From Escherichia phage 92CQ: 64,000 nucleotides of DNA. Position numbers and translations under genes: made by a program. Each line of letters starts with the position of its first letter. The first letter of the stretch is position 1. The stretch lies in the sequence record PV682554.1; one strand, 5' to 3'. The notes under the pieces are model-generated. The model had not been told where the DNA came from. It ran no database searches and saw only the letters and a program-made list of their open reading frames with translations. Below are positions 32,242 to 32,650 of this stretch, piece after piece.

Positions 32242-32582
32242 TATTCCCTCCTGTATGGCTCTGTAACGAGCTAATCGCCTTTAAGATATGCAATCACCTT
32301 ACCTCACAGTAAAACTCGTTACAATCGTTTTTAGGAGGTTTAGGTTGTACTTAAAAATAATCCAAAAAGGTGTTGACAAACGCAAAAAAGTATGCTACCC
32401 TAACCCCCGAAAAACGCCGAGCGCAGCGAGGGGGTGTTATCTAATCTTGTGATACATGATCTAACAGACAACTGAGTAGTCTACATATAGCACTATGTTA
32501 TGTCTCTAATACTAACATACATACTCTATACTAACAATAGATTCTTTATTAATTTTATTATTAATTAAATAATAAATATCTA

Positions 32583-32611
32583 TTGACTTTAGATCTATCT
32601 GTAGGTAGAGT
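32583..32611 (+). promoter_or_regulatory. sigma70-like promoter TTGACT-N17-TAGAGT with AT-rich upstream tract
   Basis: TTGACTttagatctatctgtaggTAGAGT about 40 nt upstream of prs. Confidence 0.5.
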
Positions 32612-32650
32612 AGAGAACATAAAGTCCTAACTCAACTAAGGAGATAAAGA

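Follow-up and report, generated by a model that had tools for sequence, protein, structure and literature searches.

Promoters that face each other are the core of several described phage switches, those of phages 186 (pR/pL), P2 (Pe/Pc) and P22 (Pant/Psar); the face-to-face promoters of 186 are reportedly treated by Callen et al. in 2004. In these switches, two convergent sigma-70 promoters lie tens of base pairs apart and produce overlapping transcripts and antisense RNA, so that each polymerase must cross the opposing promoter. The same features are predicted in a 409-bp intergenic gap (positions 32242-32650) within a 64,000-nucleotide stretch of Escherichia phage 92CQ (PV682554.1; hereafter, the window), where a rightward promoter, P1, and a leftward promoter, PL, would face each other. 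The differences from the 186 and P2 switches are, however, substantial: the phage is virulent, both directions reach early genes, the predicted starts are ~92 bp apart, the flanks contain no repressor genes (equivalents of CI, Apl or Cox), and a third promoter, P2, is located back-to-back with PL. On balance, the gap seems to be an early-transcription control region that consists of three predicted sigma-70 promoters, with P1 and PL convergent, and a conserved hairpin, HP1. An earlier note on this DNA, made from the sequence alone, proposed a switch region with a TTGACA element at 32373, a GC-clamped hairpin CCCCC-N21-GGGGG at 32404-32434 and two copies of ATACTAACA in an AT-rich tract ahead of the promoter of the prs gene. 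All these features are present at those positions, and the idea of a switch region stands, but conservation in the hairpin does not reside in the clamp, and the interpretation of the repeats as operator or iteron sites does not hold up. The region nevertheless appears to be a genuine control hub, more intricate than was described there, with predicted functions and a previously undescribed hairpin cassette that is conserved.

The second described system that comes close is PeSL of the T4-like phages, an early promoter with a stem-loop just upstream (a composite of terminator and promoter) that is present in dozens of copies and in which the loop is not conserved (PMC2839356, PMC4122927). Like PeSL, the P1-HP1 unit is a short combination of an early sigma-70-type promoter with a stem-loop that occurs at several places in the genome of a large virulent myovirus and is suspected of mobility. 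Unlike PeSL, HP1 lies downstream (3') of its promoter, inside the predicted transcript, and its top is invariant; the unit is found no more than two to three times per genome, with a single copy in the 64-kb window, and is shared with chromosomal islands.

The case for the functional relevance of the gap comes from comparison. The segment 31800-33100 is 95-99% identical to the corresponding segments of 55 deposited Justusliebigvirus genomes, with JohannJBalmer and EC_OE_11 as the nearest relatives, which places the window, by sequence similarity, in Justusliebigvirus (phi92-like; subfamily Stephanstirmvirinae). Eight Justusliebigvirus variants differ from one another at 18 sites in all, with no substitutions in the promoter hexamers or in the HP1 core. 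The only phage in the collection that is distant enough to be informative in BLAST comparison is Citrobacter phage Tr1, which is 71% identical over 32366-32572 and has flanks that cannot be aligned. The blocks retained in Tr1 are GTTGACA...AAGTATGCTACCCTAA, GCCGAGCG[C/A]AGCGAGG, GATCTAACAGAC.ACTGAGT.GTCTA, ATACTAACA, CTCTATA and part of the AT tract. The first two of these blocks are also found at the same genomic turning point in Phapecoctavirus (anhysbys, phiWec188 and nieznany), where the downstream gene is not prs, so that the cassette belongs to the switch rather than to prs. Thus, the promoter, the hairpin core and both repeat positions are kept in distant relatives whose flanks no longer align, and it is on this ground that the features of the gap appear to be real.

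The rightward promoter P1 (32373..32401, plus strand), identified from the sequence and its conservation, comprises the -35 element TTGACA (32373-32378), a 17-nt spacer and the extended -10 element TGcTACCCT (32393-32401), with the start predicted ~7 nt past TACCCT, at ~32408-32410. The TTGACA element noticed earlier is, accordingly, the -35 hexamer of a conserved predicted promoter. Both TTGAC and TGnTACCCT are invariant across 42 distinct variants from phages, islands and metagenomes, TTGAC having been part of the search pattern for most of these, with the copies from Tr1 and Phapecoctavirus obtained by BLAST. The spacer is 17 nt in the window and 18 nt in Tr1, Phapecoctavirus and the islands. 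When 11 switch regions representing five lineages, plus L166, were scored for promoter-like sites on either strand, P1 was the best-scoring plus-strand site of the region. Its composition is that of an extended -10 promoter: TGn precedes the -10 element, T-12, A-11 and T-7 are all present, the spacer is within the 16-18 nt range, and the -35 element is close to TTGACA.

Immediately downstream of P1 lies HP1 (32415..32433, plus strand), which was delineated by covariation and a covariance model. In the window, the lower stem CGCC/GGGG ends in the closing pair C32418-G32430, followed by a tandem G·A/A·G (32419-20 with 32428-29), one G-C and one C-G pair (32421-22 with 32426-27) and a GCA triloop (32423-25). 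Across the relatives, the conserved centre (32418-32430) takes the form C-GA-GC-[GNA or 4-nt loop]-GC-GA-G, atop a covarying stem of 3-5 bp. The G-C and C-G pairs of this core are invariant and are flanked by GA opposite GA; the symmetric context CGAG/CGAG gives stable tandem sheared G·A pairs. The loop itself varies, with GCA, GAA and GTA or, with an additional nucleotide, GATA, GAAT and GGGA, but every variant retains the GC/GC top and the GA/GA flanks. Such tolerance of three- and four-nucleotide loops is explained by a hairpin and not by a binding site in duplex DNA.

The lower stem provides the strongest evidence that HP1 is structured. In different lineages, it is formed by different sequences: UUAAC/GUUAA, UUUGCC/GGUAAG, UGAC/GUUA, GUAGUAC/GUACUAC and ACGCC/GGUGU. 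Covariation was counted in alignments of 12 and of 26 distinct sequences. In the 26 sequences, 78.8% of the cells hold standard pairs, compared with 31-52% when the partners are slid, and the covariation score is 0.332, against 0.166 ± 0.027 for shuffles (none of 500 reaches the observed value) and at most 0.154 for slid partners. Changes on both sides are seen in five of the eight pairs; among the 26 sequences, pair 7-22, which adjoins the closing C-G, is CG in 13 and AU in 8, and pair 5-24 is UG in 10, CG in 7 and UA in 6. Judged by these compensatory changes, HP1 appears to be a structured RNA element, and the plus strand is apparently the functional one because the frequent U·G and G·U pairs would become A·C mismatches on the opposite strand. 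The covariance model built from it, R1, has one match in the window (32411-32437, E = 4e-7) and one match in each related locus, in every case behind a TGnTACCCT promoter.

The hairpin initially noticed in this region was a different one, with the C5 arm at 32404-32408 and the G5 arm at 32430-32434, separated by 21 nt, on the plus strand. Taken alone, this 31-nt hairpin (-11.9 kcal/mol, z = -1.7) is not above chance. The G5 run is present only in Justusliebigvirus and is absent in Tr1, Phapecoctavirus and L160/L165, with GTGGGG in L008; moreover, if the transcript starts ~7 nt past TACCCT, the C5 arm is upstream of it. The clamp, then, marks a real conserved element without being its conserved part. 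A search of Rfam at a permissive threshold assigned no family to HP1, the only match being a sub-threshold one in the window to the GA-cis RNA (RF02987), with nothing in 10 related loci. The 3' hairpin of GA-cis does have the same core, C-GA-GC-GAAA-GC-GA-G, but the identification was rejected: the match scores 21.3 bits against a gathering threshold of 34.7 (E = 0.27) and depends on an upstream AGGAGG located before P1. A 20-nt inverted repeat (32326-32345 with 32397-32416, 80% complementary, CGTTTTTAGGAGGTTTAGGT with ACCCTAACCCCCGAAAAACG) spans P1; its left arm, 32326-32345, is not conserved in Tr1, and it was this repeat that drove the sub-threshold GA-cis match.

The predicted leftward promoter PL (32509..32537, minus strand), found in the scoring of the switch regions, is formed by the two ATACTAACA copies. 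These are indeed 19 nt apart, start to start, as the earlier note reported (32509-32517 and 32528-32536). On the minus strand, the -35 element TTGTTA (32537 to 32532) is the reverse complement from the second copy and the extended -10 element TGtTAGTAT (32517 to 32509) that from the first copy, with a spacer of 17 nt between them, and a 17-nt promoter spacer requires precisely the 19-nt spacing of the copies. The start is predicted at ~32502. A minus-strand TG-extended site with its -35 element at +162 to +165 from the -35 element of P1 was found in 8 of the 11 switch regions and in L166 (9 of 12 altogether); in anhysbys, a PL-like site is located at +208. By contrast, such a site is found in none of the 11 other cassette copies scanned (nine from non-switch loci and islands, two unclassified). 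Across the lineages, the -35 hexamer reads TTGTTA, TTGTAA, TTGACT, TTGACG, TTGAAG or TTGATC, and the -10 hexamer TAGTAT, TACATT, TACAGT, TACTAT, TACTGT or CATACT, with the TG, the A at position 2 and the T at position 6 of the -10 element invariant. In the Klebsiella-type relatives, a small leftward ORF begins ~15 nt from the -35 element of P1, which leaves only the sequence to the right of P1 as a place for its promoter.

As a repeat, the ATACTAACA pair is at chance level: when the region is shuffled, 11-15% of the shuffles contain two exact direct copies of a 9-mer no more than 60 nt apart, and the motif with one mismatch occurs 28 times in the window against 28.8 expected. The positions of both copies are kept in relatives, but in other genera not as repeats. 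In Tr1, the first copy is unchanged, whereas the second is ATAGTTACA, which differs at two of the nine positions and still reads TTGTAA; in other genera, the sequences at both positions differ and still conform to a minus-strand TTGnnn-17/18-TGnTAnnnT. Sequence drift with retention of the promoter pattern is what would be expected from selection on the -35 and extended -10 elements of a leftward promoter.

The third predicted promoter, P2 (TTGACT-17-TAGAGT, 32583..32611, plus strand), was identified by a promoter scan, has equivalents at the same place in relatives, and would serve prs, which has a ribosome-binding site (RBS) AAGGAG at 32638-32643 and an ATG at 32651. The AT-rich tract (32538..32582) thus fills the space between the -35 elements of PL and P2, so that the earlier placement of the tract and the repeats upstream of the prs promoter is borne out. 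Its A+T content is 0.82-0.95, with 95% around 32542-32581, and it abuts the -35 element of P2 in all five genera or lineages compared. This is the position of UP elements, and the tract is probably a UP-like region shared by the back-to-back PL and P2. The length of the tract varies among close relatives (32540-32563), the PD06 type having 11 nt and the inny type 12 nt inserted, about one helical turn in each case; the insertion of the inny type is a tandem duplication of AATTAAATAATA, and in phage inny the tract is annotated as a repeat_region. The ends of ALITA (PP359570.1) and the start of nieznany (MN850598.1) also fall inside the tract. Physical genome ends at this place were considered and rejected: relative to the related genomes, the junction is short by ~30 nt in ALITA and by ~60 nt in nieznany, and the breaks are probably assembly breaks in low-complexity sequence rather than termini.

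Taken together, these elements suggest the following course of events. Early in infection, host RNA polymerase would start at P1, PL and P2, the AT tract acting as an upstream UP-like element for both PL and P2. P1 would fire rightward, and its transcript, from ~32409, would fold into HP1 within a few nucleotides; PL would fire leftward into the early array, facing P1. In this prediction, P1 and PL are on opposite strands and, with starts ~92 bp apart, their transcripts would overlap by ~90 nt (32409-32502), which is the arrangement of a convergent promoter pair. Interference between the two, through collision or occlusion of polymerases and through sense and antisense RNA over 32409-32502, might set the balance of leftward and rightward early transcription. 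HP1 could be a recognition element for a protein or a stability element at the 5' end of the P1 transcripts, and it would travel with its unusual promoter as a cassette of ~60 nt. The analysis shows the sequence elements, their conservation, the covariation and the fixed geometry, from which promoter activity, start sites, interference and any role of HP1 are inferred.

Several observations weigh against this interpretation. Each of the promoters is known from its match to the consensus only, and these matches are imperfect: TACCCT agrees with the -10 consensus TATAAT at three of six positions, and each PL hexamer fits its consensus at four of six. A generic promoter scan listed neither P1 nor PL, P1 being missed because of the three-of-six fit of TACCCT, and, with 6 promoter-like sites observed against 7.6 expected, gave no sign of enrichment in the region. 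Sites of the PL type at the scoring threshold have a background of 1.09 per kb per strand; no PL reaches the score in L104, and that of anhysbys is 44 bp further off. HP1, when folded from the predicted start with standard parameters, is weak (-6.9 kcal/mol, z = -0.4), and in 12 of 26 sequences G·G takes the place of the middle pair. Finally, the compared sequences are interrelated, so that a conserved position is not independent evidence in each of them.

Scans of viral, metagenomic and bacterial contigs for TTGAC-N-TGnTACCCT followed, 12-22 nt on, by C-GAGCG-N(1-2)-AGCGA-G or a near variant yielded the 42 distinct variants mentioned above and show that P1 and HP1 move together, with two to three copies per Stephanstirmvirinae genome. 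The second copy, at ~110.4 kb in EC_OE_11 coordinates, is present in every Justusliebigvirus genome (EC_OE_11 ~110,337-110,500; L133 2338-2500, minus strand; L106 10317-10455), in a co-directional array of small early genes, upstream of a small membrane-protein gene; motif and covariance-model searches detected no second cassette inside the 64-kb window. The leader of the second copy is strongly structured (z = -4), with AUUCUCUAUA paired to the Shine-Dalgarno region of the membrane-protein gene, which looks, in the predicted fold, like translational control. Second copies were also found in Tr1, Phapecoctavirus and the Klebsiella-type relatives, and a third copy in one contig. Contigs with TACCCT...GAGCGAAGCGAG that lack TTGAC (for example, L025 and L058) were set aside as an uninformative product of the search pattern. 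An unrelated group of small viral contigs (L025, L027, L033, L058 and others) contains TATACCCTATCCCCCCCAAC-GAGCGAAGCGAG-TGGG as an inverted pair ~100 nt apart; the contigs of the L025 type contain an HP1-like hairpin, a likeness that may be trivial given that they were selected by the pattern.

The cassette is also located directly past an integrase gene in a chromosomal island of ~9 kb in Citrobacter sp. OP27, in a Buttiauxella metagenome-assembled genome and in several metagenome contigs (L179, the OP27 chromosome, 3300-5332; L139, 3413-11015; L173, 1-9359; L180). In these islands, the integrase is followed by the cassette, ~900 nt of C-rich sequence without a conserved ORF, small ORFs and endonuclease VII, and then by a DUF5906 primase-like protein, an HTH protein, an invertase and an Eco29kI restriction-modification pair. 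The homology between islands and phages is confined to ~42 nt of the cassette, with none detected past it, and no such islands were found in complete E. coli genomes. The island of the Citrobacter type could be a satellite or defence island that shares a regulatory signal with virulent Stephanstirmvirinae phages. A bolder proposal, for which we see only a slim chance, is that TGnTACCCT-HP1 is an infection-responsive signal, an RNA hairpin read by a factor of Stephanstirmvirinae phages or by host polymerase in its infected state, that was captured by islands with an integrase, a primase and restriction-modification cargo in Citrobacter, Buttiauxella and their relatives as a means of sensing infection by these virulent phages and of being switched on during it; if so, a family of lytic phages would be the trigger to which such satellite-like or defence islands respond.

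The implications depend on how much of this is correct. Although therapy-directed isolation commonly yields phi92-like and phAPEC8-like phages, their transcription programme is essentially unmapped; the searchable literature yielded no description of promoters, transcripts or a transcriptome of these phages. The gap supplies concrete coordinates for the predicted promoters that would launch both early arms, and points to convergent transcription as a possible link between the two arms, a device of temperate-phage switches that is unexpected in a virulent phage. HP1 adds a compact, covariation-backed RNA motif, a tandem G·A under a GNA loop, that is tied to an unusual -10 element and is absent from Rfam, and the cassette next to an island integrase is a lead on the sharing or stealing of regulatory signals between mobile islands and lytic phages. 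Should the promoters be as predicted and HP1 a stabilizing 5' hairpin and nothing else, the outcome would be a useful but ordinary annotation.

Four other explanations each have some support, in every case less than the control region outlined above. The first is a replication origin, in which the AT tract would be an unwinding element, ATACTAACA and the related third motif GATCTAACA at 32458 would be initiator sites (iterons), and the origin would be opened or primed either by P1 transcription or by PL and P2 firing divergently. The primary origin of T7 and oriF/oriG of T4 likewise have a promoter with an AT-rich tract downstream; here, a 45-bp tract of ~90% A+T has promoters on both sides and would be traversed by P1 transcription, the architecture is kept across genera, and GATC-containing motifs recur in relatives, with five in ~200 bp in Tr1 and phiWec188. 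Unlike the tracts of the T7 and T4 origins, however, this one is also the upstream region of two promoters, and in every relative it occupies exactly the place expected for UP elements of PL and P2; nothing else points independently to initiation. The cumulative GC skew has its minimum at 32-33 kb, as would be expected of an origin, but the skew changes exactly where the genes change direction and is, for that reason, not independent evidence; what the skew and the gene orientation in annotated relatives do bear out is the division, proposed earlier, of a leftward early array from rightward genes at the gap. An iteron origin would have at least three regular repeats above chance next to an AT unwinding element, whereas the window combines its AT tract with two 9-mers only, at chance level and not kept as repeats in other genera. 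Neither a third ATACTAACA copy, regular spacing, an adjacent Rep or other initiator gene, a DnaA box nor an IHF consensus was seen, the 409 bp contain only two GATC sites, and the P1-HP1 cassette also occurs in contexts without an AT tract (the second copy and the islands). An origin at this place is, on this evidence, unlikely.

About equally doubtful is a promoter-proximal attenuator, in which HP1 and the U-rich stretch behind it would terminate or pause most P1 transcripts until a Q- or N-like phage factor, or a host antitermination complex at HP1, allowed read-through into prs, nadV and the tRNA genes; in the islands, the same cassette would switch on the island genes during infection. In every copy, HP1 is at most ~30 nt from the predicted start and has U-rich sequence behind it (in the window, UGUUAUCU; in phiWec188, UUGUUUUUAUU), the rightward unit enters 16 tRNA genes, where Rho-dependent termination would be expected, and in the islands the cassette is separated from the genes by the C-rich non-coding sequence. 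With their sheared-type G..A closure, the GNA and GNNA loops are similar to those of boxB hairpins. Like boxB of the lambdoid nut sites and of the E. coli rrn leader, HP1 is a small hairpin near the transcript start with a G...A-closed loop, and the rrnB P2 leader contains AGCGAAGCG at almost the same distance from the promoter as here. Unlike boxB, HP1 has loops of 3-4 nt instead of 5 and a tandem G·A step, which boxB lacks, and no N-like protein or other antiterminator gene was identified. No boxA (YGCUCUUUA) was found near HP1, the best candidates being UACUCUAUA in the window and UGCUCUAUA in Tr1 and phiWec188. Mimicry of the rrn P2 leader (boxB, boxA and CAGACAAUCUG), attractive by eye, was rejected after alignment of 11 phage and island leaders to E. 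coli rrnB, which is at chance level (p = 0.3-0.98). The U tract is, moreover, impure and not always directly 3' of the stem, the stem is short and weak, and no intrinsic terminator was called on the plus strand of the gap. The second copy is only ~80 nt from its gene, in a separate RBS-hiding structure.

Two related candidates were rejected as well. HP1 is not supported as an intrinsic terminator in the other direction: the lone terminator-like site is on the minus strand (32428 to 32415), occurs at the rate expected from shuffles and needs a TTTTT that neither Tr1 nor Phapecoctavirus has. A small RNA with a terminator at its 3' end is disfavoured by the lack of a plus-strand terminator and by the P1 leader beyond HP1, which is no more structured than shuffles (z = +1.29). 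With the leader past HP1 unstructured, its conserved blocks are better read as promoter signals at the DNA level, in keeping with the convergent promoters favoured here.

Binding of the ATACTAACA copies by an early or middle phage protein that shuts off the early promoters has somewhat poorer prospects still. Two exact 9-mers 19 bp apart, the first of them invariant in Tr1, and the conservation of the related GATCTAACA are what operators might look like, and such sites would be compatible with PL given that operators commonly overlap promoter hexamers. Against this stand the chance level of the repeat and the lack of enrichment of the motif in the window, the two differences in the second copy of Tr1, and the Klebsiella-type and Phapecoctavirus sequences, which are unrelated at both positions save for the promoter-like features; no candidate binding protein was identified. 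Least probable is a hairpin at the DNA level, with a non-template GCGNAGC mini-hairpin (GNA triloop) in single-stranded DNA that affects promoter escape or is a point of recognition or recombination: the top GCG-N-AGC, in which the only changes are A, C or T at N or the insertion of a single nucleotide, fits the d(GCGNAGC) mini-hairpin that is said, from the work of Hirao, Yoshizawa and colleagues, to be very stable, and the presence at two to three places per genome and in unrelated islands with so little shared sequence would suit a mobile DNA element, but the frequent G·T wobbles in the lower stem are better tolerated in RNA and the place just past a promoter fits a feature of the transcript.

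Two further conserved blocks are located in the gap. The block AATCACCTTACCT (32291..32324; AGGTAAGGTGATT on the minus strand) includes a 13-nt exact match to anhysbys and reads TTTACT-16-GCATAT in the window as opposed to TTTAC[A/T]-17-TATCAT in other genera; at the homologous position, the Klebsiella-type relatives have TTTACA/TTGACC-17-TATCAT. The block looks like a remnant of a proximal leftward promoter with a degenerate -10 element in the window. In phiWec188, it stays with the leftward genes despite a gene inserted beside it. This additional small leftward gene, between the P1 cassette and the AGGTAAGGTGATT block (L012 1573-1785 in phiWec188), is also seen in L155, L178 and L149, so that the switch region accepts insertions on its left side. 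The second block, GATCTAACAGACAACTGAGTAGTCTA (32458..32485, strand-neutral), is identical to Tr1 at 28 of 30 positions while its flanks diverge, and is also present in the Klebsiella-type relatives. It corresponds to ~+17 to +44 in the transcript predicted from PL and to ~+50 to +77 in that from P1, and contains a small stem, AGAC (32466-69) with GTCT (32479-82), that is predicted by RNAalifold and is invariant, without compensatory changes.

The gap is the longest ORF-free stretch of the window apart from the tRNA cluster, as the earlier note had it; the apparent 1.3-kb gap at 61919-63265 was rejected because it is an ORF that runs past the end of the window. Small protein genes inside the gap were rejected as well: the 54-codon ATG ORF at 32288-32452 has no RBS, spans P1 and includes some sequence without conservation in Tr1, the remaining ORFs have TTG or GTG starts and only 22-28 codons, and the 29-codon ORF annotated in Tr1 is not conserved. 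In annotated relatives, the left side of the gap is occupied by a long leftward array with DNA ligase, RNA ligase, polynucleotide kinase and many small ORFs, which terminates at the gap with a homologue of phi92 gp106A. In the window, this homologue, the first gene of the leftward early array (31873..32241, minus strand), was recognized from the ORF list, the annotation of JohannJBalmer and phi92, and the sequence, and has an RBS GGAGGG at 32246-32251. On the right side, the relatives have rightward prs, nadV and a tRNA cluster; the first rightward gene of the window is prs (ribose-phosphate pyrophosphokinase; 32651..33544, plus strand), assigned from the ORF list and the annotation of relatives, followed on the same strand by nadV and the tRNA cluster (36097-38873), with all 16 tRNA genes of the window downstream of the gap and on the plus strand. 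Among the database records, five labeled 'Campylobacter phage' (MG065639, MG065645, MG065656, MG065689 and MG065650) are ~97% identical to E. coli Justusliebigvirus or Phapecoctavirus; these host labels are probably wrong or the result of contamination.

A separate family of strong-looking rightward promoters, TTGACA-17/18-TGnTA(A/G)(A/G)(A/G)T, extends across the prs-tRNA region, with sites at 35342, 35763, 36332, 36472, 37944, 42761 and 54952, all on the plus strand and several of them right before tRNA genes. None of these sites is followed by an HP1-like hairpin. The extended promoter pattern is enriched in the window, with 9 occurrences observed against 2.7 expected.

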